From assembly GCA_905182145.1 (NCBI GenBank), contig CAJJAN010000023.1, positions 16,668-80,667 of the forward strand: a stretch of 64,000 nt of DNA. Direction: 5' to 3'. The translations under genes and the position numbers were made by a program. The notes below the pieces were generated by a model. It made no database searches. It saw only the letters and a program-made list of their open reading frames with translations, and was not told where the DNA came from. Origin of the DNA: an uncultured Pelagibacteraceae bacterium (GTDB taxonomy: Bacteria > Pseudomonadota > Alphaproteobacteria > Pelagibacterales > AG-422-B15). This document shows positions 9,409 through 64,000 of this stretch, in pieces (within the stretch, counting starts at the first letter, position 1; each line of letters starts with the position of its first letter).

Positions 9409-9413
9409 ATTTT

Positions 9414-9608
9414 ATGAAAACTGAAGAAATTAGAAAAAAAACTGAAGATCAAATCTCTAGTGAGATGGAAAATCTTTACAAGGAATCGCTTAATCTGAGA
9501 TTTCAAAAGTCTTCAGGTCAATTAGAGAATACTTCTAGAATCAATAAAGTGCGTAAATTGATCGCTAGAATGAAAACAGTTTTAAATGAAAGGTCTGAAG
9601 GTAAATAG
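9414..9608 (+). CDS. rpmC: 50S ribosomal protein L29
   Basis: 64 aa. [30 protein letters not shown], at the operon position. Confidence 0.95.
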
Positions 9609-9609
9609 T

Positions 9610-9837
9610 ATGCCAAAAAAAATTCTTCAAGGCACGGTAGTAAGTAGCAAACAAGATAAGACTGTTACAGTTTTAGTTGAAAGAAAATTTAAACATCCTC
9701 TCTTAGGTAAGGTAATTAAGAGGTCAAAAAAATATAGTGCACACGATGAAAATAATGAGCACTCTACAGGTGATAAAATTAAAATTATGGAGTCTAAACC
9801 GATTTCTAAAATGAAAAGATGGACGGTAATTAAGTAA
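9610..9837 (+). CDS. rpsQ: 30S ribosomal protein S17
   Basis: Start moved to ATG 9610 ([25 protein letters not shown]), 1 nt after the rpmC stop. The track start at 9586 overlaps rpmC. Confidence 0.95.
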
Positions 9838-22550: not shown

Positions 22551-23627
22551 TTATTGTGCCAAGGTTTTAAGTCTGCTTTGGAGTATATCTCTATCTAAGT
22601 AACCCTGCCTAAAATATCTTTGATTTTTTATATCTTTATATTTTGATCTGCCATGCAAAACTCTATAGTTATCCATTATTATCATATCTCCAGAGGTTTG
22701 TTTAATTGTAATATTATTAACTTTACTTTTTATTAACTTCCAAAACTTACTTCTGGCTTCAGTATATTTATTTATTTCACATAAATCATCATAAGGAATA
22801 ATTTCTGTCCGATTATTGTATCGGACTTGAACAATATTATCTTCATAATCAGTCTCTATTAACGAACAATAATTTTCTAAGATTGTATCTTTATCTTTAT
22901 ATTGGAAGAAAGTTTTAAAACTTTTTAAAATATTGAACATCTCAATATTTTTGCTTTTAATTTGTTTCGCTATATTAAAGCCATCAGCCAATGTGTTTTC
23001 ACCTCCGACGTCACTATTTTTAATGCAATGAAGAAATATATAGCCTTGAGTTGGAAATCTATATGGATTATCGGTATGGTTTTCCAAAGCTCTTTCAGTC
23101 ATTGTTAAGTCGTAAGCTTTCTTAATATTCTTTATATCTGCAATATTTCCCCAATTTGTCTCTTTAATAGGACCAATATGCTTTGTTAAAGCATGTATAC
23201 CATTTTTTGTTGTGGGCATATTTTTTATTAAGCAAAAACCATACTCATCAACTGCATTTAAAACATCTTTTAATAATTTTTGGTTAAATTTTTTAAAATT
23301 ATATTGTGGTATCTTTTTTAAAGAACTGTTCCACAAAGTTTTCTTAGGGTATTCTTTTGGAGCTATAAGATCATTAATATTGTAGTTATGTTTAGAGTTA
23401 TTGCTAAAACTAATACTTAATATACTTTTATTAATTTTAAATTTATTGATTTTCAGATTTAAATCTAACTCAGCCGCTTCTATTAATAGTTGATTTGTTT
23501 GCTTGTCTCTTATAGTTATATCTGAACTGTGTTCAATTAACCATATTGGTGAAAATTTAAATATTTTATTTCTGATTTCTAATCTTAAATAATTAGTATT
23601 TTTATTTTTAACTATTGAACATTTCAT
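22551..23627 (-). CDS. Gamma-butyrobetaine / trimethyllysine dioxygenase-family Fe(II)/2-oxoglutarate oxygenase
   Basis: 358 aa. LENHTDNPY...FLHCIK...GGENTLADGFNI and GDMIIMDNYRVLHGRSKY are colinear with human BBOX1 as I recall it (FHTDYP, LLHCIK, DGFNV, DNWRLLHGRRSY). The substrate is not determinable from sequence. Confidence 0.85.
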   Translation of the reverse strand: MKCSIVKNKNTNYLRLEIRNKIFKFSPIWLIEHSSDITIRDKQTNQLLIEAAELDLNLKINKFKINKSILSISFSNNSKHNYNINDLIAPKEYPKKTLWNSSLKKIPQYNFKKFNQKLLKDVLNAVDEYGFCLIKNMPTTKNGIHALTKHIGPIKETNWGNIADIKNIKKAYDLTMTERALENHTDNPYRFPTQGYIFLHCIKNSDVGGENTLADGFNIAKQIKSKNIEMFNILKSFKTFFQYKDKDTILENYCSLIETDYEDNIVQVRYNNRTEIIPYDDLCEINKYTEARSKFWKLIKSKVNNITIKQTSGDMIIMDNYRVLHGRSKYKDIKNQRYFRQGYLDRDILQSRLKTLAQ

Positions 23628-25104: not shown

Positions 25105-25785
25105 TTATGGTCTTATATTCTCGAAAATTATATTATCTGCAATTAAATTAGCCTTCTTTTTTTTATCTTCATTATCAACTGTCCAAGTGATTATAGGTAA
25201 GCCCTTTTTTTTCAATCTATCAACCAAATTTGATTCAATAAATTCAATATCGCATGATACAAAATCTATGTTTAAATCTAAAATTGCTTCAAAATTATTA
25301 GTATTTGAATCTATAACTAAGCCTTTGTAAACATACGGTAAAAATTTAATCAACCATTCTACTGATTTCAAATTAAATGTTTTTAATGCTATAGGTCCTC
25401 TATACGACCGAATAATTTCTTGAATTCTTTCCTCTATAAATGGAGTAAATTTTCCTTTTATTTCTATTATTATTGGAACATGTGCACTCACAACATGTAG
25501 CATTTCATCTAATGAAATTATATTTGAATTGCTTTCATAGATTTTTAGACTTCTTAATTCATTCATTGTTAAGCTAGATATACTTTTATCTAAGTTACAA
25601 AGTCTTTTTAAATTTTCATCATGGAACACTACTACCTCATGATCTTTTGATAATACTACATCACATTCAATCGCATAATTTTCATTTACTGCTGCTAAAA
25701 ATGATTCTTTAGTATTTTCATATATGTTGTTAGCATTACTATGAAGTCCTCTATGTGCAATGGGAAGTTTATTAAGCCAATTCAT
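25105..25785 (-). CDS. Glycerophosphodiester phosphodiesterase family protein (copy 1)
   Basis: 226 aa. IAHRGL...ENTKESFLAA...IECDVVLSKDHEVVVFHDENLKR (GDPD HR...E.D...HD pattern). Confidence 0.88.
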   Translation of the reverse strand: MNWLNKLPIAHRGLHSNANNIYENTKESFLAAVNENYAIECDVVLSKDHEVVVFHDENLKRLCNLDKSISSLTMNELRSLKIYESNSNIISLDEMLHVVSAHVPIIIEIKGKFTPFIEERIQEIIRSYRGPIALKTFNLKSVEWLIKFLPYVYKGLVIDSNTNNFEAILDLNIDFVSCDIEFIESNLVDRLKKKGLPIITWTVDNEDKKKKANLIADNIIFENIRP

Positions 25786-26470
25786 TTTTTAAGTAAATAT
25801 AAATTTCTTCCCAAGTATCAGCTTTTGTAGAGATATCTTCCGGCGTTTTTATCAATCTGGCTAGTCTTTTATCAGATACATAATGTATTAATTTAACATT
25901 AGGGACTTCTTTATTTGCAGATTTTAAGTTAAATACCATATCATCTACAAAAAATACTTTATTTTTAAAATTAGATATTATTTTTTTAATTGTAGGACCC
26001 TTTGAATTAATATTTGTTATAATAGGGTAATCTAAATTATTTTTCTTAAAGCAATATATCCTATCTTGTCTCCGTTTAACTGGAATATTAGTTAATATAA
26101 TTATTTGAAAGTTAAGTTCAGCTTCAATTTTTTTTAAATTTTCAAATGCGCCGGGAACAATATTCATATCTTTAGTATTTAGGTCAAAAAAATTATCAAG
26201 ATGCTTAGTTACTTCTTCTTTAGAAATTGGTTCATCATTATCAATTTTTAATATATTGCCAAACAATGAGTAAGTAGAAAGATCAAATTTGAGTTTATGA
26301 GCTAATAGATATTTTTCAAATGATCCAAGAAAGTCTAGTATTACTTCATCTGCATCTGATATAAATAGCGGTTTATCTGGGTCTAATGATATTTCGCTTA
26401 ATTGCTTTAAGACATCTTCATGTACTGGTGGTGCTACATCTACCTTAATCTTAGCAGTACTTGATGACAT
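25772..26470 (-). CDS. HAD-superfamily hydrolase-like protein
   Basis: 232 aa. Putative HAD motif I FISDADEVILDF (DxDxV), motif II IILTN and motif IV FFVDDM. The specific function is unknown. Confidence 0.6.
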   Translation of the reverse strand: MSSSTAKIKVDVAPPVHEDVLKQLSEISLDPDKPLFISDADEVILDFLGSFEKYLLAHKLKFDLSTYSLFGNILKIDNDEPISKEEVTKHLDNFFDLNTKDMNIVPGAFENLKKIEAELNFQIIILTNIPVKRRQDRIYCFKKNNLDYPIITNINSKGPTIKKIISNFKNKVFFVDDMVFNLKSANKEVPNVKLIHYVSDKRLARLIKTPEDISTKADTWEEIYIYLKNELA

Positions 26471-35985: not shown

Positions 35986-36079
35986 GGAGTGATGGGTGAG
36001 TGGCTGAAACCGGTTCCCTGCTAAGGAATTTAACGGGCTTATACCCGTTACGAGGGTTCGAATCCCTCTCACTCCGCCA
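35986..36079 (+). tRNA. tRNA-Ser (anticodon GCU), CCA encoded
   Basis: Hand-folded. Acceptor GGAGTGA/TCACTCC; D stem GGT/ACC; anticodon stem GTTCC/GGAAT with loop CTGCTAA. Long variable arm AACGGG-CTTAT-CCCGTT; T arm GAGGG-TTCGAAT-CCCTC; discriminator G then CCA. Confidence 0.93.
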
Positions 36080-36080
36080 C

Positions 36081-38231
36081 CTAAGGTTTTAGAATTGGGA
36101 CTACAATCTTGCTTCTATCTTTTTTGCCTACTGTCAGATTGTAAGATAGAGTATAACTATTTGGTAGATAATTATTTTCAATAAATTCATAAACTTGTAA
36201 ATTTTCCATTACCCTCTGAACATAATTTCTTGTTTCTTTAAATGGTATTAGTTCTATCCAATCTACTGGATCAATATCATTAGTTCTTGGATCGCCATAT
36301 CTTGCTATCCATCTTGTTACTCTTGAGGAACCAGCATTATATGCAGCAAGAGTTAGTATATAAGAGCCATCATATTTTGATAAAAGCTCATCAAGGTAAG
36401 CACTTCCTAATATTACATTATACTCAGGGTCACTCGTTAATCGTGATTTTGAATATTTTAAGTTTAAACCTTTAGATAGTTTCTTAGCTGTGTAGGGCAT
36501 AAGTTGCATCAAGCCTTTGGCTCCAGCGTAACTTCCAGCTTTTGGATCAAACTGACTTTCTTGCCTTATTACAGAGTGAATAAATGGCTGCGAAGGAAAT
36601 ATAATTTTACCAAATTTTGGCTTTTGAACTGAAGGAAAACTTTCTGGCGCTAATAATAGTGTATCGTAATATATAAATTTACCAGCTTGAACAGCAAAGT
36701 CGTTTCGACTTAATTTTTTTGCCAACTTAGCAATTCTTAATCTTTCCTCAGTATTATCAGACCTTGCTATACTCCATATAAATTTTTTCATAATCTTAAA
36801 TTCTTCTAGTTCATCTAAAAGATATATCGCTCGATAAACTTCAATCATTTCTGAATTTGGATTATTTACATCTATTGTTTCAGGGTAGCTATTTACAATA
36901 AATTGACTTTGTTCTCCTAAATATTGATTTGCAAGCTGGCCGTAGAACGTAAAGTTATATTTAGATGACTCTAAAAACCATTCTTGAGCCATCTCATTTT
37001 TATTTAATTCTTTGTAAGATCGCGCCAACCAAAATGAGCCTCTTGCTTTGGATATTGGTCTTGAGGAAATATCGTAGATATTCCTAAAATGAAGTGAGGC
37101 AGTTGCAGGATCATTTAAAAATGAAAAACTCAACCATCCTGCAAGCCACTCAGCAGCTGCAATATCAGCATTGCTTTTTAGACCATGGTTAATTGAAAGT
37201 CGATAAGCCTCATCATAGCGATGTTCATCAATTAGTTTTCTTATTGAGTAGTTTTTAAGCTTCCAGAACTTATCTGGCCTTTCTAGTTCCGCTGAACTAT
37301 TTTTGTTTATTTCTTGTAACAAGCTTAATGCAGAAGAAAATTTCTTCTTTTTTATTCGCCAATTAATTCTATCGTGTACTAGTCCTGAATCATTTCTCAA
37401 TTGATTAGGAACATTGGCAATTAATTGATCTACTCCACCTGAGAATGATATGAGACCAATTCTAGCTTCATAAAGTTTCTGATAATCCTTATCAACATAC
37501 TTAATTAGTCTTTGTGCTGTACGATATTGTTTATTCCAAAGTAAGTTTGATATTCTTTTTTTATGATGTTCAATATCTAGAAAAGATTTAAACTTTATTA
37601 CTATCTGCTTTTGCTCAGTTTTTCCAAAAGAGCCTTCTATATAGCCCTCTCTAATTAATTTAATTCCTTTATCTTTTTTTCCAATTGAAACATATGCATT
37701 ACCTAGATAGATTTTTCCTATACCACTCTGTACATCATTTTCCTTAAAGAAGTTGATAATATCAGATGCTGAGTCTGAAAATCTAATCTTTGACTCTGCC
37801 TTTAATTTTATGTTGTCTATTTCAGGCCAATTATTATTTTTTATTATATAATTTACATAATCAGTAAATGTTAAATCAGATGCACCATTATAATATCTTA
37901 CCCAATCAATTAAATTTAAAGCATCTTCATCCTTTAAGTTTTTTTTGATATTTGAAACTCTTTCCCATTTCCATTTCTTTGATTGTTTGAAAGCTAAGTC
38001 TAAAATATCAAATTCTTTATTTGACAAAGTGTTTGATGATATGGGCGCTTTGGGTTTCTTAACTGGAGATAAAAGAAATGGCTTACTTGGTTTTTTTGAG
38101 GGAAAATTTAATACTAGTATCTTTTGAGTACTTGTATTTGAATCTATTAATTCAATGCTATTTTCTATAGCTGAAGCCTTAAAAGTACCTAAAATAATAA
38201 AAGATAGTAATATAGTTATAGATTGTTTCAC
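36081..38231 (-). CDS. slt: Soluble lytic murein transglycosylase
   Basis: 716 aa. N-terminal signal-like MKQSITILLSFIILGTFKASA, a long helical-repeat region, and a C-terminal SLT domain VIRQESQFDPKAGSYAGAKGLMQLMP...AYNAG. Confidence 0.92.
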   Translation of the reverse strand: MKQSITILLSFIILGTFKASAIENSIELIDSNTSTQKILVLNFPSKKPSKPFLLSPVKKPKAPISSNTLSNKEFDILDLAFKQSKKWKWERVSNIKKNLKDEDALNLIDWVRYYNGASDLTFTDYVNYIIKNNNWPEIDNIKLKAESKIRFSDSASDIINFFKENDVQSGIGKIYLGNAYVSIGKKDKGIKLIREGYIEGSFGKTEQKQIVIKFKSFLDIEHHKKRISNLLWNKQYRTAQRLIKYVDKDYQKLYEARIGLISFSGGVDQLIANVPNQLRNDSGLVHDRINWRIKKKKFSSALSLLQEINKNSSAELERPDKFWKLKNYSIRKLIDEHRYDEAYRLSINHGLKSNADIAAAEWLAGWLSFSFLNDPATASLHFRNIYDISSRPISKARGSFWLARSYKELNKNEMAQEWFLESSKYNFTFYGQLANQYLGEQSQFIVNSYPETIDVNNPNSEMIEVYRAIYLLDELEEFKIMKKFIWSIARSDNTEERLRIAKLAKKLSRNDFAVQAGKFIYYDTLLLAPESFPSVQKPKFGKIIFPSQPFIHSVIRQESQFDPKAGSYAGAKGLMQLMPYTAKKLSKGLNLKYSKSRLTSDPEYNVILGSAYLDELLSKYDGSYILTLAAYNAGSSRVTRWIARYGDPRTNDIDPVDWIELIPFKETRNYVQRVMENLQVYEFIENNYLPNSYTLSYNLTVGKKDRSKIVVPILKP

Positions 38232-38313
38232 AAAATGAATAAATTAATGGTTTTGAGAGTATATTTATGATTTATATTTTTTAAATAATTAAAAATGATA
38301 GAGTATAATATAT

Positions 38314-39189
38314 ATGTTTAAAGGTTCTTTTACAGCATTAATTACCCCATTTAAAGATGGCAAATTTGATGAAACTTCTTTTCGCTCATTAATTGATTTT
38401 CAGCTAAAGTCAGGAACACATGGTTTGGTTCCCACGGGTACTACTGGCGAGTCTCCAACACTAAGTCACGAAGAGCACATAAGAATAGTTGAAGTTTGTA
38501 TTGAGCAAGCAAATAAAAAAGCACCTGTTATTGCAGGTACAGGTTCTAATTCTACAGAAGAAGCTATTTATTTAACTAAGCATGCAGAGAAAGCAGGTGC
38601 TGATGCTGCACTAGTTGTTACACCTTATTATAATAAGCCATCACAAGAAGGCCTTTTGCAACATTTTACTAAAATAGCCAACAGTGTAGATATTCCTATT
38701 GTTATTTATAATATTCCAGGAAGATCAATCGTAGATATGAGCAATGAGACTATGAGTAAATTATTTGAGGTTAAAAATATTGTTGGTGTTAAAGACGCAA
38801 CTGGAGATATTCCAAGAGTATATTTTACAAGAAGTGAAGTAGGTAATGAATATAATATGTTAAGTGGAGATGATTCTACAACATTGGCATTTATGACTTA
38901 TGGTGGGCATGGAGCTATTTCAGTAACTTCAAATATTGCTCCAAAACTATGTTCTGATTTTCATAGTTTGTGTATGGATAAAAATTTTTATGAAGCATCA
39001 CTAATTAATGACAAATTGATGCCATTACATAGAGCTTTATTTTTAGAGTCTAGCCCTGGACCAGTAAAATATGCCGCATCTAAGCTAGATTTATGTTCAG
39101 AGGAAGTAAGGTTGCCTGTAACTAAAATTAATAATGATACAAAAAAAATTATTGATAATGCTTTACGACACGCCTCACTAATTAAATAA
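38314..39189 (+). CDS. dapA: 4-hydroxy-tetrahydrodipicolinate synthase
   Basis: 291 aa. GTTGESPTLSHEEH, TPYYNKPSQEG and VGVKDATGD motifs. Confidence 0.96.
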   Translation: MFKGSFTALITPFKDGKFDETSFRSLIDFQLKSGTHGLVPTGTTGESPTLSHEEHIRIVEVCIEQANKKAPVIAGTGSNSTEEAIYLTKHAEKAGADAALVVTPYYNKPSQEGLLQHFTKIANSVDIPIVIYNIPGRSIVDMSNETMSKLFEVKNIVGVKDATGDIPRVYFTRSEVGNEYNMLSGDDSTTLAFMTYGGHGAISVTSNIAPKLCSDFHSLCMDKNFYEASLINDKLMPLHRALFLESSPGPVKYAASKLDLCSEEVRLPVTKINNDTKKIIDNALRHASLIK

Positions 39190-39191
39190 AA

Positions 39192-39629
39192 TTGACAATC
39201 GTAGCCCAAAATAAAAAAGCTCGTTATAACTACTTATTTTTAGAACTGTTCGAGTCAGGAATAGAGCTAAGAGGCAGCGAGGTCAAATCTCTTCGCTTAG
39301 GTAGAGTTAACATTACAGAGTCTTATGCTAGAGAAGAAGGTAGTGAGTTATTTTTAATTAATTCTCATTTCTCAAAATACACTAACTCTTCTTATATGAA
39401 TCATGAAGAAACAAGGCCAAGAAAGCTTTTGCTTAATAAAAGAGAAATAAGGAAAATTATTGGAAAGCTGAACAAAGAGTCTTTAACATTAGTTCCAACA
39501 AAAATTTTTTTTAACAAGAAGGGATTTGCTAAAATTGAAATTGCGTTAGCCAAAGGAAAAAAAGATCATGATAAGAGAGAGGTAAGTAAAAAAAGATCTT
39601 GGGAAAGAGAAAAGAAAAAATATAAATGA
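39192..39629 (+). CDS. smpB: SsrA-binding protein SmpB
   Basis: 145 aa. VAQNKKARYNY...IELRGSEVKSLR. The frame opens only at 39186, so TTG at 39192 is the only plausible start and no SD is visible. Confidence 0.92.
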   Translation: MTIVAQNKKARYNYLFLELFESGIELRGSEVKSLRLGRVNITESYAREEGSELFLINSHFSKYTNSSYMNHEETRPRKLLLNKREIRKIIGKLNKESLTLVPTKIFFNKKGFAKIEIALAKGKKDHDKREVSKKRSWEREKKKYK

Positions 39630-40141
39630 TTTACGCTATTGGATTAGGATCAAATTTAAACTCTAGATATGGAAATCAATATCAGACGTTAAAAAAAGCT
39701 ATAAGCTGTATAAGAAAAAAAAATATCCAAGTCTTAAAAACTTCAAGAATATATATAACTCAACCTGTAGGCATGAAAGGTAATAATTGGTTTTTAAATG
39801 CAGCCATAATAATATCAACTCAACTACAGCCACTTAATCTTTTGTTATCTCTATAAAAAATTGAAAATGAAATGGGTAGAAATGCTTATAAGCCAAACAC
39901 ATCTAGGCCATGTGACCTAGATATACTTTTAACTAACCAAAATACAATCTTTAACAATAAAGAAAATAAATATCATATTACTATTCCACATAAAAAAATG
40001 CATGAAAGAATGTTTGTATTAAGACCATTGATGGATATATGCCCTCAGTGGAAACACCCAATATTAGAAACAAGTATCCAAAAAATAATATCTACTTCAA
40101 AATCTAGAGAAAAAGTAAGGATATATAGAAATAATTTGTGA
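39626..40141 (+). pseudogene. folK: HPPK (2-amino-4-hydroxy-6-hydroxymethyldihydropteridine diphosphokinase) interrupted by one in-frame TAA
   Basis: ORFs 39626..39856 and 39872..40141 share one frame. Together they give a colinear HPPK: IGLGSNL, NWFLNAA, then LLSL*KIENEMGR, RPCDLDILL, ITIPHKKMHERMFVLRPL. The stop is at 39854-39856. Confidence 0.8.
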
Positions 40142-40144
40142 TAT

Positions 40145-40174
40145 TTGAGACATTTTTAGGTATTTCTTTATACT
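40145..40174 (+). promoter_or_regulatory. Candidate spoT promoter (TTGAGA-18 nt-TATACT)
   Basis: TTGAGA at 40145-40150 and TATACT at 40169-40174, in the 57-bp folK-spoT spacer, about 25 nt upstream of the ATG at 40199. Confidence 0.3.
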
Positions 40175-40198
40175 CAAAATCATGGTTAAAAGTATCTT

Positions 40199-42322
40199 AT
40201 GCAGCAACCAGACTTTATAAAAAACATTAAGTCTAAAGATAGTGATGCAAATCAATCTTTAATAGAGAAAGCCTATTTCTTTGCTCTTGAAGCACATAAA
40301 TCTCAAAAAAGATATTCTGGAGATCCATATATATCCCATCCAGTTAAAGTTGCTGAAATACTAACTAATTTAAAATTAGATACAGCAACAATTATCACTG
40401 GTTTACTCCATGACACAGTTGAAGATACTCCAGCATCAATGGAAGAATTAAAAAAAATATTTGGTAACGAAATTGCAAGCTTAGTTGACGGTGTAACCAA
40501 GATTTCAAAAATGAAAACTCATTCAGATGTCAAAAATCAAGCTGAAAATTTTAGAAAGTTAATATTGGCGGTATCAAAAGATATCAGAGTTCTATTGGTG
40601 AAACTGGCTGATAGATTGCATAATATGAGAACTATAAGCTATGTGCCAAATGAAGAAAAAAGAAAGAGAATAGCTTTAGAAACAATGGAAATCTATGCAC
40701 CTTTAGCTGGTAGACTGGGCATGCAATCTTTTAGAGATGAGCTTGAAGACCTATCTTTTCAAATTTTAAATGCAGCTGCCTATACATCTATAAAGAATAG
40801 AGTTGATTATTTAAAAAATAGCAGCAGTAATCTTACTGAAAAAATTAATATTCAAATAGTTAACTTATTAAAAGAAGAGAGTATATTGTGCGAAGTAATA
40901 GGTAGAGAAAAAAAAATTTATTCAATTTGGAATAAGATGCAGCGTAAGGAAATTGCTTTTAGGCAATTATCAGACATATTTGCATACAGAATTATTACTG
41001 ATAATAAAAATGATTGCTACAAGGCCTTGGGAATAATTCATTCTAAGTGGTCAGTAGTACCTGGATCATTTAAAGACTATATTTCAACACCAAAAATCAA
41101 CAACTATAGTTCTCTACATACAACAATTGTAGGACCTCAAAGACAAAGAGTGGAGCTTCAAATTAGAACTAAAGATATGAGTGAAATTGCAGATAGTGGT
41201 ATTGCTGCACATTGGCAATACAAAGATAACTACAACTTAGTAGATGATTCATCTTCTGATCCAATTAATGTAACATGGTTAAGAGACCTAGTTGATATAT
41301 TGGACTCTGGCGCTACTTCAGAAGAATTATTAGAGGCTACAAAATTAGAGATGTTTCAACAGCAGGTGTTTTGTTTTACTCCGAAAGGAGATCTTATTCA
41401 CTTACCAATTAACTCTAATCCAATTGATTTTGCCTACGCTCTTCACTCTGAGATAGGTAATATGTGCATAGGATGTAAAGTTAATGGAAAGTCCCAGCCA
41501 TTATTTGCAAAGCTTCAAAATGGAGATGAAGTAGAAATTTTAACTTCAAAAGGGCAAGAACCATCAGAGGTATGGGAAAATATTGCAACCACTGCAAAAG
41601 CTCAAACTTCTATAAAACGATACTTTAAAAAACAAGAAAACAGTGACTTTGTAGATTTAGGAAAAAGAATATTATTAAACTCACTTGGTTTTTCAAAAGA
41701 GATACCGGAAAATGTTGCCAATGAAATGATGGTTAAATTCAAGAAAAAATCTTTTAATGATTTAATGATATCTATTGGAAGAGGTCATATAAAAAATAAA
41801 GAAATAATAAAATTTAAGCCAAGAAAAAGATTATCTTTTTTTACTAGATACCGAAAAAATCCTAATCAAATTCTTCCATTGGAAATTAAAGGCTTACAGC
41901 CTGGGTTAGCAGTACATTTTGCTGAATGCTGCTTGCCATTGCCTGATGAGAGAATAATCGGTGTTTCAGAAATTGATATTGGTGTGATTATACATAATTC
42001 AAATTGCAAAAAGTTAAATGAAGATTTTTCAGAAGATCTTTGGCTTGCAGCTACCTGGAAAGATATTAGTGAGGAACAATTATTTACTTCGCGAATAAAG
42101 GTATCGGTGGTTAATGAGCCAGGTTCATTAGGAATGCTTGCTACTCATATTGGCAAACATGGTGGGAATATTATTAATTTAAATATTTCAGAGAAAAGTA
42201 ATGATTTTTTTGATATGATATTTGAAATGAATTTAAAAAGTCTTGATCATTTAAATGTTATTATCAAAAATTTGAAAGAACTAGATAGAGTTAGCATGGT
42301 AAAAAGATTATTTATTAATTAG
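40199..42322 (+). CDS. spoT: Bifunctional (p)ppGpp synthetase/hydrolase (RelA/SpoT homolog)
   Basis: 707 aa. HD hydrolase HPVKVA...LLHDTVEDT, synthetase YSSLHTTIVGP...ELQIRTKDMSEIADSGIAAHWQYK, TGS (VFCFTPKGDLI) and a C-terminal ACT-like domain. Confidence 0.95.
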   Translation: MQQPDFIKNIKSKDSDANQSLIEKAYFFALEAHKSQKRYSGDPYISHPVKVAEILTNLKLDTATIITGLLHDTVEDTPASMEELKKIFGNEIASLVDGVTKISKMKTHSDVKNQAENFRKLILAVSKDIRVLLVKLADRLHNMRTISYVPNEEKRKRIALETMEIYAPLAGRLGMQSFRDELEDLSFQILNAAAYTSIKNRVDYLKNSSSNLTEKINIQIVNLLKEESILCEVIGREKKIYSIWNKMQRKEIAFRQLSDIFAYRIITDNKNDCYKALGIIHSKWSVVPGSFKDYISTPKINNYSSLHTTIVGPQRQRVELQIRTKDMSEIADSGIAAHWQYKDNYNLVDDSSSDPINVTWLRDLVDILDSGATSEELLEATKLEMFQQQVFCFTPKGDLIHLPINSNPIDFAYALHSEIGNMCIGCKVNGKSQPLFAKLQNGDEVEILTSKGQEPSEVWENIATTAKAQTSIKRYFKKQENSDFVDLGKRILLNSLGFSKEIPENVANEMMVKFKKKSFNDLMISIGRGHIKNKEIIKFKPRKRLSFFTRYRKNPNQILPLEIKGLQPGLAVHFAECCLPLPDERIIGVSEIDIGVIIHNSNCKKLNEDFSEDLWLAATWKDISEEQLFTSRIKVSVVNEPGSLGMLATHIGKHGGNIINLNISEKSNDFFDMIFEMNLKSLDHLNVIIKNLKELDRVSMVKRLFIN

Positions 42323-42325
42323 ATT

Positions 42326-42904
42326 ATGAAAAAAGAAGAAATAGTAGACATATTAGAAAAAACAGGTGCCATACAACATGGTCATTTCATACTTTCTTCT
42401 GGCAAGAGATCCGCTATTTATTGTCAATGTGCAAAATTATTTATATACCCTGAAATAGCTGAGAAAATCTGCAATGAACTAGCTATCAAAGTTATAAATG
42501 AAATTAAGTTAGATATAGATTATATTGTTGCTCCAGCTATGGGTGGAGTTTTAGTTGGCTACGAACTTGCCAGGCAGCTAAAAACTAAATCTGTTTTCTA
42601 TGAAAGAGTAAACGGTACATTTGAATTAAGAAGAGGGTTTGAGATTGAACCTAATGCTAAAGTTGTCTTAGTTGAGGATGTTATTACTACTGGTAAATCT
42701 GCGAATGAATGCATCATTGAATTAAATAAAATTGGTGTCAACCTATTGGCAACTGTTTGTTTGATAGACAGAACTAATAATGAAAGTGTAATTAAAGATC
42801 CAATCTCTATTCATAGGCTAGATATCCCAATTTATGATGAAGATTCACTTCCAGATGAATTAAAATTAATTAGACCAATTAAACCAGGCAGTAGAGATAT
42901 ATAG
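42326..42904 (+). CDS. pyrE: Orotate phosphoribosyltransferase
   Basis: 192 aa. HGHFILSSGKRS and PRPP-binding VVLVEDVITTGKS. Confidence 0.93.
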   Translation: MKKEEIVDILEKTGAIQHGHFILSSGKRSAIYCQCAKLFIYPEIAEKICNELAIKVINEIKLDIDYIVAPAMGGVLVGYELARQLKTKSVFYERVNGTFELRRGFEIEPNAKVVLVEDVITTGKSANECIIELNKIGVNLLATVCLIDRTNNESVIKDPISIHRLDIPIYDEDSLPDELKLIRPIKPGSRDI

Positions 42905-42908
42905 TCAT

Positions 42909-43640
42909 ATGTCTAATGCAAGACTTGGAGTTAATATAGATCATGTTGCAACTGTTAGAAATGCAAGGGGTGAAGGCTATCCTAGCCCATTAAGGGCAGC
43001 TTTAGACGCAGAGCTTTATGGTGCAGACGGTATTACTGCACATCTTAGAGAGGATAGAAGACATATAGTTGATAAAGACATAGAAGATTTGGTTGATAAC
43101 CTACAGATTCCATTGAACTTAGAAATGGCTGCAACAGAAGAAATGCTTTTAATAGCATTAAAGCATAAACCTAATGCATGTTGCATAGTTCCTGAGAAAA
43201 GAGCAGAAGTTACAACTGAAGGGGGTATAGATACAGTTAAAAATTTTAAAACCTTAAAAGATTATACTTCTCAGTTAAAAGACAATGGTTCAAGAGTATC
43301 ATTGTTTGTCGATGCTGATAAAATACAAATTGATAATTGTATGGAAATAGGTGCTGATATTGTAGAAATACACACTGGAAAATATTGTCAACTTATTGAA
43401 ACCGGTAGCACTATTGCAGATTCAGAATTGAATAAAATTATGGCTATATCAAAATATTCAGAAAGTATTGGTTTGGAGGTTCATGCGGGACATGGTATTA
43501 CTTTCAATTCAATAAAGCCTTTAGCAAAGATTCAATCTGTAAAAGAGTTTAATATTGGACACTTTATAATCGGTGAGTCAATTTTTATGGGTTTAGAAAA
43601 AACTATTAAAAAAATGAAATCTTTAATTTTAGAAAGTTAA
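42909..43640 (+). CDS. pdxJ: Pyridoxine 5'-phosphate synthase
   Basis: 243 aa. LGVNIDHVATVRNARG and HLREDRRHI motifs. Confidence 0.96.
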   Translation: MSNARLGVNIDHVATVRNARGEGYPSPLRAALDAELYGADGITAHLREDRRHIVDKDIEDLVDNLQIPLNLEMAATEEMLLIALKHKPNACCIVPEKRAEVTTEGGIDTVKNFKTLKDYTSQLKDNGSRVSLFVDADKIQIDNCMEIGADIVEIHTGKYCQLIETGSTIADSELNKIMAISKYSESIGLEVHAGHGITFNSIKPLAKIQSVKEFNIGHFIIGESIFMGLEKTIKKMKSLILES

Positions 43641-43643
43641 TAA

Positions 43644-44033
43644 ATGATTGGTATTGGTACTGATATTCTAGATATTAGAAGAATAGAAAAAACTATTAAT
43701 CGTTTTGGTAATCGATTTAAGAAAAGAATATTTACACAAAATGAGATTAAAAAATGTGAAGCTAGAAAGTTATCAGCTAATTGTTATGCAAAAAGATACG
43801 CAGCTAAAGAAGCTGCATCCAAAGCGCTTGGTACTGGCTTTCGCAAAGGTGTTTTTTGGAAAGATTTAGAGGTTAGTAATTTACCTTCCGGTCAACCTAC
43901 AATAATTTTTCATAACGGTGCAAAAGATTACTTAGCTTATTTGACTCCAGCTAAAAAAGAGGCACTTATAAACCTTACTATTACTGATGAGTACCCTTAT
44001 GCTCAAGCTATTGTAATTATTGAAAGTAATTAA
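43644..44033 (+). CDS. acpS: Holo-[acyl-carrier-protein] synthase
   Basis: 129 aa. IGIGTDILDIRRIEK and YAAKEAASKALGTG motifs. Confidence 0.94.
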   Translation: MIGIGTDILDIRRIEKTINRFGNRFKKRIFTQNEIKKCEARKLSANCYAKRYAAKEAASKALGTGFRKGVFWKDLEVSNLPSGQPTIIFHNGAKDYLAYLTPAKKEALINLTITDEYPYAQAIVIIESN

Positions 44034-44039
44034 ACAACT

Positions 44040-44771
44040 ATGAATCAATCAACATCTTTTGAATGGATAAAGTCAAATGTATTGTCACTATTTTATGCAG
44101 TATTAATAGCCGTTGTAATTAGAACTTTTTTCTTCCAAGCATTTTTTATACCCTCTTCATCAATGGAACCATCTCTTTTAGTTGGAGATAGAATATTTGT
44201 ATCAAAATTTACATACGGTTACAGTAAGCATTCACTTCCTTTTAGTCTGTCCTTGATATCAGATAGAATTTTCTTCTCAGAACCTAAGCGTGGAGACACA
44301 ATAGTATTTAAGACACCAGAAAATTTAAGAATAGATTACATAAAGAGGTTAGTCGGATTACCTGGAGATAAAATTCAAATGATTGATGGAATACTTCATA
44401 TTAATGACACACCTATAAAAAGAGAAAAGATAAGAGAGGAGACTAAAATTATTAATAGTGGCCAAGTGCTAACTGCTTCTGTTTATAGAGAATTTTTTCC
44501 CAATGGAAGATCATTTGAAACTTTCGATATGGGTAATACTAGAGCTGACAATACTAAAGTATTTAATGTCCCTAAAGATGAATATTTTTTTATGGGAGAT
44601 AATAGAGATAATTCAAAAGATAGTAGATTTATAGGCTCAGTACCAAAAGACAACTTGGTTGGAAAAGCTCAGATAATATTTTTTGCAACTGAAGGTGGTT
44701 CTACAATTTTAGAATTTTGGAGATGGCCTTTTGATATCCAGCTTAATAGAATATTCAAAATTATTAATTGA
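44040..44771 (+). CDS. lepB: Signal peptidase I
   Basis: 243 aa. Catalytic SSSMEPSLLVGD, YIKRLVGLPGD and GDNRDNSKDSR boxes. Confidence 0.95.
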   Translation: MNQSTSFEWIKSNVLSLFYAVLIAVVIRTFFFQAFFIPSSSMEPSLLVGDRIFVSKFTYGYSKHSLPFSLSLISDRIFFSEPKRGDTIVFKTPENLRIDYIKRLVGLPGDKIQMIDGILHINDTPIKREKIREETKIINSGQVLTASVYREFFPNGRSFETFDMGNTRADNTKVFNVPKDEYFFMGDNRDNSKDSRFIGSVPKDNLVGKAQIIFFATEGGSTILEFWRWPFDIQLNRIFKIIN

Positions 44772-44773
44772 TC

Positions 44774-45442
44774 ATGGAAATTGAACTTTTAGAGAAACAC
44801 ATCTCATATACCTTTAAAGATAAAGATATTTTAAAAAGGGCACTTACACACAAAAGTACAATGATGTCTATGCACAATGAACAGTATGAATTTTTAGGTG
44901 ACCGTGTATTGGGATTAGTAATTTCTGAAACATTACTTAAAAACTATGATCAAATATCTGAAGGTAATTTAGATAAAGTATTTAGTACTTTAGTAAATAA
45001 GGATATATGTGCAGAAGTAGCACTAGGAATTAATTTAGGAGATTTTTTAATTTTAGGAAAAACTGAAATTGCTTCAGAAGGAAAGAATAAGTTAGGTATA
45101 TTAGCCGATGCGTGTGAGGCCTTGATAGCTTCTATCTATCTAGATGGTGGCTTTACTGCAGCTAAAAACTTCATAATTGATAATTGGACTAAGTACTTCA
45201 ACTCGATTGATTTAGACTTCAAAGACCCAAAATCTGCACTTCAAGAATGGAGCTTAAAAAGATACAAAAGATTGCCAGAATATAATTTGATTAAGCAGGA
45301 AGGGCCCGCTCATTCTCCTACTTTTAAGGTAAATGTAAAGTTTGATAATTACAAAGAAGCTATGGCTACATCAGGTAACATTAAAGATGCTGAAAAAAAA
45401 GCTGCGATTGAATTTATTAAACTGAATGAATTAGAGATTTAA
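44774..45442 (+). CDS. rnc: Ribonuclease III
   Basis: YTFKDKDILKRALTHKS, ...YEFLGDRVL and a C-terminal dsRBD. The ATG at 44774 is preferred. The track start at 44768 is a TTG overlapping the lepB stop and cannot be excluded. Confidence 0.93.
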   Translation: MEIELLEKHISYTFKDKDILKRALTHKSTMMSMHNEQYEFLGDRVLGLVISETLLKNYDQISEGNLDKVFSTLVNKDICAEVALGINLGDFLILGKTEIASEGKNKLGILADACEALIASIYLDGGFTAAKNFIIDNWTKYFNSIDLDFKDPKSALQEWSLKRYKRLPEYNLIKQEGPAHSPTFKVNVKFDNYKEAMATSGNIKDAEKKAAIEFIKLNELEI

Positions 45443-45447
45443 TTATT

Positions 45448-46296
45448 ATGAAAAGTGGAACAATCTTACTTTTAGGAGCAACAAACTCAGGTAAATCTAC
45501 TTTAGTTAATCAAATTGTTGGCAAAAGAGTTTCGATGGTGTCTAGAAAGAAACAATCAACTACTTTTAATCAAAAAGCAGTAAAAAATATTTCAGAAACT
45601 GAATTTATTCTTCAAGATACACCAGGTATTTATTCAGCTAAAACAAAAATTAGCAACAAAATGACTAATACAGCTTTTTCAGCAATTGATGAGGCTAACT
45701 TAGTTTTAGTTGTGGTTGATTCAGGTTCAACTAAGAATAGTGAAATTGATAAGATAATCAAAACTTTAAATGAGTCCAATCAATCAAGTAAGATTTTCTT
45801 AGTATTAAACAAGATTGATAAAGTTAGCCGAGAAACAGTACTAGAAAAGATTAAAGCTTTAGGTGATATGAATTTATTTGAAGAAATTTTTCCTATTTCA
45901 GCACTTATAGGTGATGGTGTTCAAGAAATGTTAGATATAATAAAAAACTACCTACCAAAAGGTGAAAAACAATTTTCTAACAAAAAAACTCTTTTTGTTA
46001 AAAAAGATGTTTATTATACTGAGGTAACAAGAGAGAAGCTTTATGATAGAACTCATAAAGAGATTCCATATGAATGCAAAATTACAACTGATAAAGTTTC
46101 AAATTCTAAAAGTGCAATTACTATTCATCAAACTATACATATTAACAAAAAATCACATAAATATATTTTAGTTGGGAACAAAGGCAGCAATTTAAAATCT
46201 ATAGGTGAGTCATCTAGAAAAGAAATTTCAAAGTTTATGAATAAAAAAGTAAATTTATTTTTGTTTGTAAAGTTAACAAGTGTAAATAAATCGTGA
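45448..46296 (+). CDS. era: GTPase Era
   Basis: 282 aa. G1 GATNSGKST, G3 DTPG, G4 NKID and a C-terminal KH-like LVGNKGSNLKSIG. Confidence 0.9.
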   Translation: MKSGTILLLGATNSGKSTLVNQIVGKRVSMVSRKKQSTTFNQKAVKNISETEFILQDTPGIYSAKTKISNKMTNTAFSAIDEANLVLVVVDSGSTKNSEIDKIIKTLNESNQSSKIFLVLNKIDKVSRETVLEKIKALGDMNLFEEIFPISALIGDGVQEMLDIIKNYLPKGEKQFSNKKTLFVKKDVYYTEVTREKLYDRTHKEIPYECKITTDKVSNSKSAITIHQTIHINKKSHKYILVGNKGSNLKSIGESSRKEISKFMNKKVNLFLFVKLTSVNKS

Positions 46297-47015
46297 GATG
46301 GTCAAGTGAAGGTTTCGTTTTAAGTCTAAAGCCACACAACGAAAAATCATATATCTTAGAAGTATTAACTCGTGAACATGGTAAACATAAAGGGCTTATA
46401 AGGGGTGTTCATTCAAAAAATATTAGATCTATAATTGAACCTGGAAACGAAATTACCGCTCATTGGTCGGGCAGGCTAGAAACGCACTTAGGTAATTATT
46501 CTGTTGAAGGAATTAAGTCATGGTCTTCGTTAATATTAAATGAACGAGAGAAACTATGTGCTTTGACTGCTGCCTGTAGTTTAATTACAAACACTCTTGC
46601 AGAAAAGCAACCAAATGAAGCTATATATACAGGACTTAAATTCTTAATACAGATACTAACCTCAACTAATAAGGATTGGATCAAAGATTATATAATCTGG
46701 GAATTAAACTTGCTAACTGAAATTGGTTATGGGTTAGACCTATCAAGATGTGCAGTTACTAGTGAAAAAGATAATTTAGTTTACGTCTCTCCTTCAACTG
46801 GTTCTGCAGTAACTAAAGCTGGCGCAGGCGAATACAAGAATAAATTGCTAAAACTTCCTAGTTTTCTAATTGATCAAAAAACTTCTATTTCTAAAGAAGA
46901 TATTATTGATGGTTTAATTCTCAGTGAGTTTTTTTTAAAGAAATGGTTCTTTTCTCCAAATAATCTTAATTTCCCTGAATCAAGGAATCGCCTTAAAGAT
47001 ATGTTTGGAAGTTAA
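46293..47015 (+). CDS. recO: DNA repair protein RecO
   Basis: 240 aa with a GTG start in a GTGA overlap with era. EGFVLSLKPHNEKSYILEVLTREHGKHKGLIRG start, at the conserved rnc-era-recO position. Confidence 0.88.
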   Translation: MRWSSEGFVLSLKPHNEKSYILEVLTREHGKHKGLIRGVHSKNIRSIIEPGNEITAHWSGRLETHLGNYSVEGIKSWSSLILNEREKLCALTAACSLITNTLAEKQPNEAIYTGLKFLIQILTSTNKDWIKDYIIWELNLLTEIGYGLDLSRCAVTSEKDNLVYVSPSTGSAVTKAGAGEYKNKLLKLPSFLIDQKTSISKEDIIDGLILSEFFLKKWFFSPNNLNFPESRNRLKDMFGS

Positions 47016-53178: not shown

Positions 53179-53925
53179 ATGGCCTTTAATTATTTAAATT
53201 CAAATTTTGCTGCATTTGCGCATCGAGGTGGAGCAAATGACTTTGTAGAAAATACATTGGAAGCCTTCGAACAGTCAATCAATTTAGGTTTTAAATACAT
53301 TGAAACTGATGTTCGAGCTACAAAAGATAATAAATTAGTCATTTTTCATGATCCAGATTTAAAGCGTATGTTAAATTTAGAAATTGATATTTCATCAATT
53401 AACTATGATGAGTTAAGCAGCTATAAGATAAATGGTGTTCATAAAATTCCAACTTTTTTAGAAACTGTTTCATCGTGGCCAAATATAAATTTTAATATAG
53501 ATCCAAAGTCAGATAAATCAGCTGAACTACTTATAAGTGAGTTAAAATCTGTTGGTAACTTAGATAGATTTTGTGTTGGATCATTTGATTCAACAAAGCT
53601 AAATAAAATTAGAAATGCTTTTGATAACAAATTGTGCACTAGCATGGGAACAAATGAGGTAATTAATTTTTATTTCTTAAGATTTTTTGGAATTAACAGC
53701 ATTAATACACCGTGCTTACAGCTACCTTATTATAAAAATGGATTTAAAATAATTACAGCTAAATTAATAAGAGATGCCCATAAGTTTAATAAAAAAGTCC
53801 ATGCATGGACTATTGATGACCCAAAAGAGATAAGTGAACTTTTAGATATGGGTATTGATGGAATAATGACTGACAGCCCTGAACTTTTAAAAAACGAGAT
53901 GGCAAAAAAGGGAATAAGTATTTAA
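53179..53925 (+). CDS. Glycerophosphodiester phosphodiesterase family protein (copy 2)
   Basis: 248 aa. FAHRGG...ENTLEAFEQS...YIETDVRATKDNKLVIFHDPDLKR...AWTIDD. Confidence 0.88.
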   Translation: MAFNYLNSNFAAFAHRGGANDFVENTLEAFEQSINLGFKYIETDVRATKDNKLVIFHDPDLKRMLNLEIDISSINYDELSSYKINGVHKIPTFLETVSSWPNINFNIDPKSDKSAELLISELKSVGNLDRFCVGSFDSTKLNKIRNAFDNKLCTSMGTNEVINFYFLRFFGINSINTPCLQLPYYKNGFKIITAKLIRDAHKFNKKVHAWTIDDPKEISELLDMGIDGIMTDSPELLKNEMAKKGISI

Positions 53926-54440: not shown

Positions 54441-55703
54441 ATGAGTTTTTTCAAAAGTAATTTAATTGATATTGATAAAGATATTGCTGATTCAATTAGC
54501 AATGAGTTAAACAGGCAGCGTAATCAAATTGAGTTAATAGCATCTGAAAATATTGTTTCAAAAGCAGTATTAGAAGCTCAAGGTTCAATTCATACAAATA
54601 AATATGCAGAAGGTTATCCTGGCTCAAGATATTATGGAGGCTGTGAGTATGTTGATGTAGCAGAAGAGATAGCGATAAGCAGGGTAAAAGAATTGTATGG
54701 ATGCAATTATGCAAATGTACAGCCACATTCAGGCGCACAAGCTAACGGTGCAGTTTTTTTAGCCTTAATTAAACCCAATGATACAATTCTTGGCATGAGC
54801 CTAGATGCTGGTGGACACCTTACTCATGGAGCAAAGCCTTCACAATCAGGAAAATGGTTTAATCCAATTCAATATGGAGTTAATGAAAGTGGACTAATTG
54901 ATTACGACCAAGTTGAATCGTTAGCCAAAGAACATAAACCAAAACTTATTATTGCAGGTGGAAGTGCTTACTCTAGAAAAATTGATTTTAAAAAATTTAG
55001 AGAGATAGCTGACTTAGTTGGTGCTTATTTATTAGTTGATATGGCTCATTATTCAGGTTTAATTGCAGCTGGCGAATATCCAAATCCGTTAGAATATGCC
55101 GATGTTGTAACATCAACTACACATAAGACTATCAGAGGTCCTAGAGGAGGAATGATACTATCCAATAATCTAGATTTAGGAAAAAAATTTAACTCAGCAG
55201 TTTTCCCTGGATTACAGGGAGGCCCATTAATGCATGTAATTGCTGCAAAAGCAGTTGCTTTTGGTGAGGCATTAAAACCAGAATTTAAGACCTATATCCA
55301 GCAAGTGATTTCTAATGCTAAAATACTTGGAGAAACACTAGTTAATCATGGCTTAAACATAGCATCAGGAGGTACTGACACACATTTATTGCTTGTTGAT
55401 TTAACGCCAAAAGGACTAACTGGAGATGTTGCTGAAGCTAGCCTAGAAAGAGCTAACATAACGTGCAACAAAAATAGCATTCCATTTGATCCCAAGCCAC
55501 CTAAAGTAACTTCAGGCATTAGGATTGGAACTCCGGCAGCTACAACTCGTGGATTTAATAATGAAGATTTTGTAAAAGTAGGAGATCTAATTGCAGAAAC
55601 TTTAAAAGGATTGCAAGATAGTCCTGAAAATAATGATAAGGCAGAAGAAAATGTTCGAGTGCAAGTTAAACAGCTTTGTGATAAATACCCAATTTATAAT
55701 TAA
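54441..55703 (+). CDS. glyA: Serine hydroxymethyltransferase
   Basis: 420 aa. [24 protein letters not shown] and PLP-lysine region [14 protein letters not shown]. Confidence 0.97.
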
Positions 55704-62065: not shown

Positions 62066-62488
62066 CTATAATCCACGCGTGAACGCGTCATATAGTTGGT
62101 CTAAGACAGAATACTTAGTTCCATAACTATAAGTTTGTTTATTGTTATACTTGATGTCTAACATCTGATTCTTGTCATATATTTCTTGCGAAATCAAAAT
62201 ATCATCTGCATCAAAGTTGAATGCAAAAATAAGTTGATCTTGAAACTCATCTTTTGAAAAAACTTTTTTCTCTTTTGAGGATGCTATATATAGCCATGTA
62301 TTACCAACATCCTCAATTTTAATAGATGGTGATCCATACGAGGCAATTAAGTCTACCTTTGAAGAAATTCCAATTGTTTGAGGTTCGCTTATTAATATAT
62401 CCTCTAATTGATAGCCGTGTGGCTTTATAACCGGTGCACAAGATGATAAAAAAAATGATAATATCAAGAATATTTGTGTTAACTTCAT
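62066..62488 (-). CDS. bamE: BamE (SmpA/OmlA)-like outer-membrane lipoprotein
   Basis: 140 aa. Signal plus lipobox FFLSSC, then HGYQLEDILI...SKVDLIASYGSPS...NTWLY, resembling BamE domains. Confidence 0.65.
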   Translation of the reverse strand: MKLTQIFLILSFFLSSCAPVIKPHGYQLEDILISEPQTIGISSKVDLIASYGSPSIKIEDVGNTWLYIASSKEKKVFSKDEFQDQLIFAFNFDADDILISQEIYDKNQMLDIKYNNKQTYSYGTKYSVLDQLYDAFTRGL

Positions 62489-63034: not shown

Positions 63035-64000
63035 TAGATAACAGGGAAACAATAAAGATTTCGATTGACACACTTGGCAGTGAAACGTCAATAGCAAATA
63101 TAATAAAAGGATTAAACACCTCCTTTCTGCGAAATGATAATTATTTTTTTAGACTTTTTGGACCTAAAGAGAAATTGAACTACGAGCTAAAAAAATTTAG
63201 TACATTAAAAGAAAATGTAGAAATTATCGATTGCAATGAATTCGTTGAGATGACTGATAAGCCTAGTGAGGTAATGAAAACTAAAAAAAACTCTTCAATG
63301 TTTAAATCTATTATTTCTATTTTAGAAACAGACTCTAAAGCTGTTTTATCTTGTGGTAACACAGGAGCTTTAATGGCTATTTCATTATTAAACTTAAAGA
63401 CATTGGATACAATAAAGAGACCTGCCATTGCATCTATATGGCCGAATGTAATAGGTGAGTCAATCGTTCTAGATCTTGGGGCAAACATTAAATCAGATAG
63501 TCAGTTTTTGATTGATAATGCTATCCTTGGTACAAGTTTAGCAACAACTCTTTTAAAAATTAAAACTCCATCAGTTGGTTTACTTAATGTAGGCAAGGAA
63601 GATAGCAAGGGTAATGAAGTTCTTCAAAAAGCTTCTCATGAGTTATCAGCATTAGATGCTAAAGGATTAATTAATTACTATGGATTTGTTGAAGGAAGCG
63701 ATATTTCAAATGGATTGACTAATGTAGTAATAACTGATGGTTTTACAGGGAATATTGCACTAAAAACAGCTGAAGGAACAGCTAGGATGATACAAGTTTT
63801 TTTGAAAAACTCACTTAAAAGCTCGCTTGTATCAAAACTAGGAGCTTTCCTTGCTTCATTCGCACTTTCCTCGCTAAAAGACAAATTAGATCCTAGAGTA
63901 CATAACTGTGGAATTTTTGTAGGCTTAAATGCCCCAGTAATTAAGTGTCATGGTGCTTCAGATCACATCGGTATAACCTATGCTGCAGATTTGCTTTACA
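63031..64000 (+). CDS. plsX: Phosphate acyltransferase PlsX, N-terminal ~323 codons (3' end lies outside the window)
   Basis: Not in the ORF track because it has no stop in the window. My translation from ATG 63031: MIDNRETIKISIDTLGSE...VLSCGNTGALMA...VVITDGFTGNIALKTAEG...VIKCHGAS. ATGA overlap with the upstream gene. Confidence 0.92.
   Translation, partial: MIDNRETIKISIDTLGSETSIANIIKGLNTSFLRNDNYFFRLFGPKEKLNYELKKFSTLKENVEIIDCNEFVEMTDKPSEVMKTKKNSSMFKSIISILETDSKAVLSCGNTGALMAISLLNLKTLDTIKRPAIASIWPNVIGESIVLDLGANIKSDSQFLIDNAILGTSLATTLLKIKTPSVGLLNVGKEDSKGNEVLQKASHELSALDAKGLINYYGFVEGSDISNGLTNVVITDGFTGNIALKTAEGTARMIQVFLKNSLKSSLVSKLGAFLASFALSSLKDKLDPRVHNCGIFVGLNAPVIKCHGASDHIGITYAADLLY

Follow-up and report, generated by a model that had tools for sequence, protein, structure and literature searches.

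A single private stop codon in an otherwise conserved folK gene of SAR11: a possible nascent nonsense allele

Monofunctional bacterial HPPK enzymes of folate synthesis, such as those of Escherichia coli (1hka/1dy3), Haemophilus influenzae (1cbk), and Bacillus anthracis (8sk1), are single-domain proteins of about 170 residues that transfer a pyrophosphoryl group from ATP to 6-hydroxymethyl-7,8-dihydropterin. The folK gene considered here is located at positions 39626-40141 (+ strand) of a 64-kb stretch of DNA of a SAR11 (Pelagibacterales) marine bacterium, referred to below as the window, and likewise specifies a single HPPK domain, in a frame of 171 codons plus a terminal stop. In contrast to the described enzymes, this frame is cut at codon 77 by a premature TAA (39854-39856, + strand), and a full-length enzyme is not encoded by the gene as it stands.

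Genes with such an interruption have been described in several contexts. Strain-specific nonsense alleles, or nascent pseudogenes, are characterized by a single disabling substitution in a gene that every close relative retains intact. The window folK shares both features and, like such alleles, is free of further decay and of an excess of missense changes; judged from the comparison with its relatives, it appears to fit a nascent nonsense allele, which is a well-known kind of variant. Programmed recoding bears only a superficial likeness to this locus, namely, an in-frame stop within a conserved gene. Known recoding includes the insertion of selenocysteine at TGA and of pyrrolysine at TAG, as well as the reassignment of stop codons in some bacteria and phages. 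In contrast, the stop described here is a TAA, it is unconserved, and it is the ordinary terminator of most genes in the window; we know of no bacterial recoding system for TAA. Poly-A frameshifts rescued by polymerase slippage, which have been described for insect endosymbionts, occur in AT-rich reduced genomes. The window folK likewise carries A8 and A9 runs, and one conspecific contig has an additional base in the A9 run, but the lesion in the window is a substitution that breaks the A8 run and is thus beyond repair by slippage.

The interruption divides the gene into two ORFs which, as the original prediction stated, share one frame, with neither a frameshift nor a second stop. The N-terminal ORF (39626-39856, + strand; 76 aa) matches positions 2-63 of the HPPK profile and contains strands, helix 1, and the first half of helix 2, this secondary structure being read from a model of an intact orthologue. 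The C-terminal ORF (39872-40141, + strand; 89 aa) begins at Met83, matches profile positions 73-116, and contains catalytic loop 3, the Mg-binding DLD motif, and the ATP-side residues. Exactly one internal stop occurs in the frame, in the context ...LLLSL*KIENEMGR..., and the terminal stop is a TGA at 40139-40141. The start codon at 39626 overlaps the stop of smpB (39192-39629, + strand) in an ATGA sequence (39626-39629), which bears out the coupling of the two genes that had been proposed. The internal stop arises by a single A-to-T change at 39854 within the A8 run (CTAAAAAAAATT to CTATAAAAAATT), where the ancestral codon is AAA (Lys), while the A9 run in codons 30-33 (39715-39723, + strand) is intact in the window. 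Apart from codon 77, the joined translation is identical to a protein of a public gene collection (P0121).

The description of the locus as an otherwise intact HPPK gene was borne out by profile searches, residue conservation, and structure. The joined translation matches the Pfam HPPK family PF01288 over profile positions 2-116 of 116 with 111.6 bits (cut-off 25.7) and the NCBIfam equivalog TIGR01498 (folK) over positions 3-128 of 128 with 107.4 bits (cut-off 54.1). Either half alone also exceeds the Pfam cut-off (48.7 bits for profile positions 2-63 and 42.6 bits for 73-116). Alignments to solved HPPKs are colinear across the position of the stop, which stands opposite Gln in the H. influenzae sequence ...LQRIENEQGR (1cbk) and opposite Lys in the plant enzyme ...LKKIEKEMGR (7mpy). 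The placement of the stop on the Gln of E. coli FolK, as given in the original prediction, is consistent with the Gln of 1cbk. All HPPK motifs quoted in the original prediction are present in the joined translation, as are the residues of all 17 invariant columns of a 63-sequence alignment; the conserved residues kept include the GSN loop, Glu80, Gly84-Arg85, Arg94, Asp97, Asp99, Pro121-His122, and Arg128. The fold was assessed with the intact orthologue P0001 (99% identical) instead of the truncated products. Its AlphaFold2 model (pLDDT 93.6) has the HPPK alpha/beta fold, and the top 50 Foldseek matches are all HPPKs with TM values of 0.85-0.92. In this model, residue 77 lies in the middle of a helix spanning residues 69-83. 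In sequence, residues, and fold, the locus thus belongs to the HPPK family, and only the open frame is lacking.

The comparison of the gene with its orthologues, which had been suggested together with the family-model alignment, showed that close relatives carry AAA or AAG at codon 77. The gene order slt-dapA-smpB-folK-spoT-pyrE is common to the window and to conspecific metagenome contigs, and in all 21 of these (98.0-99.9% nucleotide identity) codon 77 is AAA (Lys). One of them, a 7.2-kb contig (L018), is 98.3% identical to the window across the whole slt-to-pyrE segment and encodes an intact FolK of 171 aa. In folK itself, six synonymous changes and a single missense change, in addition to the stop, separate the window from L018, and only two synonymous changes and the stop separate it from another conspecific contig, L019. 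The nearest species representatives belong to Pelagibacterales (SAR11), with the same gene order and FolK proteins that are 84, 81, and 68% identical. At this codon, AAA is found in one further species of the clade (L003) and AAG in two (L004 and L005), and among 63 homologues the position is most often K (37), Q (10), or H (6) and is never absent. In the public gene collection, P0121, which equals the window translation with Lys77, is indexed in 518 blocks, and the cluster table places it on 312 contigs, the longest of which is 400 kb.

The interrupted form is found nowhere else in the material that was searched. An exact look-up of the 76-aa product in the public gene collection returned no record, and an allele-specific exact DNA scan of JGI metagenomes did not find the TAA haplotype; when the variable bases were replaced with N, the same scan recovered two conspecific contigs, both with AAA. 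The 89-aa product is recorded on two short contigs only (L001 and L002). These were rejected as further split copies and regarded as assembly artefacts, as both carry AAA at codon 77 and unrelated sequence upstream: in L001, the terminal 32 nt are unrelated (L001:1-32), and L002 is a chimera in which an ORF that is Bacteroidota-like by eye (L002:1-297) is joined to SAR11 folK at the equivalent of window position 39806. From these comparisons, the TAA is derived from AAA and private to the window genome.

The selective regime of the gene was estimated from dN/dS values, which for folK are 0.106 against L003 and 0.103 against L004. The corresponding values for neighbouring genes are 0.094 and 0.095 for pyrE, 0.079 and 0.109 for pdxJ, and 0.082 and 0.113 for acpS. 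Within the species, folK has a pN/pS of 0.09, a value that is biased low, the ten contigs having been picked through the intact protein. These ratios show that folK, like its neighbours, is under purifying selection in the clade. The proposal that the stop reflects decay of the folate pathway was therefore sustained in part only: a recent nonsense mutation remains an even proposition, whereas decay as a property of the lineage is unsupported, given a folK dN/dS of about 0.10 and a common intact allele. An ordinary decaying pseudogene was likewise rejected, since the window copy shows one lesion without any indel, the only further private change in it is synonymous, and dN/dS in the clade is about 0.10.

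We consider a very recent loss-of-function allele, created by the private single-base change, the leading explanation, with a probability of roughly 0.5; it presupposes that the base is real and not an error. The window folK would then be the common, maintained allele of the species except for one derived A-to-T transversion at 39854 (Lys77, AAA to TAA), and it would represent a very young loss-of-function allele carried by one lineage or cell. The nonsense event, if real, would be very recent because the window copy is otherwise undrifted. The target for such a mutation is large: stop-creating changes make up 6% of all single-base changes in the AT-rich folK, and the gene contains 15 AAA codons. 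Translation from the smpB-coupled start would stop halfway through helix 2, with 76 residues made. The same chain would not include loop 3 (Gly84-Arg85...Arg94), Asp97 and Asp99, which bind Mg, or the region of His122 and Arg128, so that no active HPPK would be produced; we infer that the truncated products are inactive. Such a cell would be unable to make HPPK and would depend on an external supply of folate or pterin, or else be on its way to being purged. Under strong selection, a surviving folK knock-out is unexpected unless it is extremely recent or folate is salvaged.

Background on the metabolism of these bacteria is relevant here. Energy metabolism in SAR11 runs through tetrahydrofolate-linked C1 oxidation (PMC3160333), and a 2026 survey reported extensive predicted folate auxotrophy in Pelagibacterales (PMC13408713). 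Because folate auxotrophy is so widely predicted (PMC13408713), repeated loss of folK within this order is plausible, and an independent nonsense allele of the gene is present in a conspecific contig (L022). If the base is real, the knock-out would fit the patchy folate synthesis reported for Pelagibacterales. Our search of the literature for pseudogenes or nonsense alleles in SAR11 returned nothing relevant.

A quite plausible alternative, to which we give somewhat less credence, is that the stop results from an error in sequencing, amplification, or assembly. In this case, the true codon 77 would be AAA, folK would be intact, and the T at 39854, and perhaps that at 39877, would be mistakes of the consensus. 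The TAA allele is a singleton against 21 conspecific contigs and is missing from every collection searched, and purifying selection on folK is otherwise normal. A comparison of 8,779 positions against 5 to 21 conspecific contigs revealed only three private substitutions in the window. The first is the change at 39854 (+ strand; A to T, Lys77 AAA to TAA). The second, also A to T, is a synonymous change of Gly84 from GGA to GGT at 39877 (+ strand), where A is present in 21 of 21 conspecific contigs. The third is a Thr558Ile change in SpoT (41871), at a site that varies between species. Two private A-to-T changes are thus located 23 nt apart, both in folK, with only one other in the remaining 8.7 kb. 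For independent mutations, such clustering would be unlikely, at roughly 1-2% by a rough estimate. A locally poor stretch of sequence would account for the pair, but so would one mutational event affecting several bases or the import of a short haplotype. Artefactual splitting of folK is, moreover, frequent in public contigs, as illustrated by an N run (L021), the chimeric L002, a contig with a coverage of 2 (L020), and several cuts at contig ends.

Other features of the sequence argue against an error. There are no indels between the window and its closest contigs, and no other gene is disrupted across the 64 kb. The differences of the window from L018, L019, and L020, which comprise 12 synonymous, 8 missense, and 1 nonsense change, look as if filtered by selection. 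A substitution within a homopolymer is an atypical error; to our knowledge, it is the usual error type of no sequencing platform, homopolymer errors normally being changes in length. Two mistakes within one k-mer would also need several supporting reads in most assemblies. The original prediction took a sense codon in sister genomes as a sign of a sequencing artefact and an ordinary gene. This criterion did not hold: AAA and AAG were indeed found there, but they show only that the TAA is derived and private and provide no proof of an artefact.

An alternative at the level of the population, which we regard as unlikely, is that this SAR11 species is ceasing to need folK, with seawater supplying folate or pterins, and that knock-out alleles segregate as an early stage of gene loss. 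It draws on lesions in other conspecific sequences. On one contig (L022; ENA ERZ23486584, BILL18-1 scaffold_854; 99.4% identical and present in 3 samples), Gly84 is changed from GGA to TGA in a folK that is otherwise intact; the gene lies at L022:2433-2948, equivalent to window positions 39626-40141, and the changed codon corresponds to 39875-39877. This nonsense codon affects an invariant glycine seven codons downstream of the stop in the window. On L020 (ORXF01008868; coverage about 2), folK (L020:1403-1919) has A10 in place of A9 at codons 30-33, which shifts the frame; the extra A is the only indel of this contig in 4.9 kb, and it could be either a real slippage allele or a homopolymer error due to low coverage. 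On L021 (L021:2627-3144), a scaffold gap of 10 N shifts the folK frame, and the resulting split is artefactual. A 47-aa fragment in the protein collection (P0124) was traced to the N run of L021, to the real TGA codon of L022, and to the ends of contigs L023 and L024, while a 122-aa fragment (P0127) was rejected as a further lesion, as it is caused by a contig end.

Three different lesions thus lie within 55 codons among about 22 conspecific sequences, and folK is the only gene seen broken among these contigs; dapA, smpB, spoT, and pyrE were compared in 10 to 20 copies apiece and are unbroken in all of them. Segregating sites in folK amount to 23 of 516 (4.5%), the highest density among the 12 genes at window positions 38126-46904, the others having 1.1-3.8%. 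The many folate auxotrophs predicted in Pelagibacterales (PMC13408713) point in the same direction. In the improbable event that this explanation is correct, the Lys77 TAA, the Gly84 TGA of L022, and the A9 insertion of L020 would segregate at low frequency in cells that use folate or pterins leaked by their neighbours.

Against such relaxation, the ascertainment of the lesions was biased: L021 and L022 came from a search with folK fragments, and the lesion of L020 is a change of homopolymer length at a coverage of 2. Six of the seven contigs that were chosen independently of folK (L019, L020, and L036-L040) carry it intact. A folK of 171 aa is found at all six listed places that carry the PyrE of the window, and the intact protein is indexed in the 518 blocks mentioned above. 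The polymorphism is mostly synonymous (11 of 15 classifiable folK variants; pN/pS 0.09, biased low), and dN/dS between species is about 0.10. Ordinary rare deleterious variants, combined with assembly noise, would explain the data within the species equally well. From a wider angle, they give a hint of recurring folK knock-out alleles in the species. If loss at the population level were true, it would offer a live snapshot of the evolution of dependency, in the manner of 'Black Queen' gene loss, in the most abundant heterotroph of the ocean.

A far less probable alternative is that enough HPPK is still made, either by low-level readthrough of the TAA or by reinitiation at Met83 with assembly of the two fragments. 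Cofactor-pathway enzymes may be needed in trace amounts only, and either half of the protein alone scores as HPPK. An ATG (39872, Met83) lies 15 nt past the stop, and its leader is A/T-rich and without a Shine-Dalgarno sequence, as are those of real genes in the window. Some reinitiation at this codon is conceivable. However, a protein begun at Met83 would lack residues 77-82. Among these is Glu80, which all 63 aligned sequences share and which corresponds, with an offset of three residues, to Glu77 of the E. coli enzyme, a residue mutated in a structural study (entry 3kue). The break also lies in the middle of helix 69-83, and the modelled structure suggests that an active enzyme formed from two pieces is unlikely. 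No naturally split HPPK was found among the close homologues, as far as these were looked up; the short members of the 90% cluster that were followed were all traced to a contig end, an N run, or the nonsense codon of L022. The proposal of two complementing fragments, and with it that of a naturally split enzyme, is therefore unsupported, the split being private, within a helix, and accompanied by the loss of Glu80.

Readthrough of the stop fares no better. None of the 21 conspecific contigs, 3 sister species, and 63 homologues has the stop, and programmed readthrough or recoding, which the original prediction had kept among its options, is unsupported; because the stop is private and unconserved in any relative, recoding cannot have been selected for. 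TAA terminates 47 of the 73 ORFs of the window, and in 18 of these it is followed by A, as at codon 77. The only tRNA of the window is a tRNA-Ser(GCT), a suppressor tRNA being absent from the 64 kb, and Rfam searches matched neither a riboswitch nor any other structured RNA at the stop, the only match in the window being this tRNA. An altered genetic code is rejected as well, as the code of this genome is standard because TAA is its main terminator.

In the case of a very recent loss-of-function allele, as in that of an error, the finding in itself matters little, and its practical message concerns annotation. The correct annotation of the locus is one folK gene with a premature stop, marked as a pseudogene or, pending inspection of the reads, as 'low-quality sequence', and not two small genes with HPPK domains.

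The surroundings of folK are those of an extremely compact genome with about 31% G+C. Downstream, at a distance of 57 nt, lies an intact gene for a (p)ppGpp synthetase/hydrolase of the SpoT/RelA type (40199-42322, + strand); its domains, like the SmpB domain (PF01668) of the upstream neighbour, were identified on syntenic contigs. A promoter-like sequence at 40145-40174 is a consensus match only and is not enriched, and promoter and terminator scans gave results at chance level. Only a few bases separate the 73 ORFs (each at least 90 aa long) that tile the window, folK itself being the sole large hole; another hole of 428 nt, at 9409-9836 between large ribosomal-protein ORFs, is taken up by two short ORFs of 64 and 83 aa. 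Pfam families were matched by 37 of 40 ORFs scanned in the part from 18 kb to 64 kb, most of them over the whole profile. As far as this coverage extends, it agrees with the earlier observation that no gene of the window other than folK is interrupted. The three ORFs without a match (E <= 1e-5) are located at 25772-26470 (- strand; 232 aa), 62066-62488 (- strand; 140 aa), and 63180-63488 (- strand; 102 aa). None of folB, folP, folC, folA, or folE was found among these 40 ORFs, and the folate-using gene glyA, whose product uses tetrahydrofolate, is present at 54441-55703. The tRNA-Ser(GCT) gene (35986-36079, + strand), the only RNA gene detected in the 64 kb, is situated between gatB and a convergent lytic transglycosylase gene. 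Among the housekeeping genes, the window also carries a gene for a dioxygenase of the TauD/TfdA family and two separate genes for glycerophosphodiester phosphodiesterases (GDPD) (22551-23627, - strand; 25105-25785, - strand; and 53179-53925, + strand).
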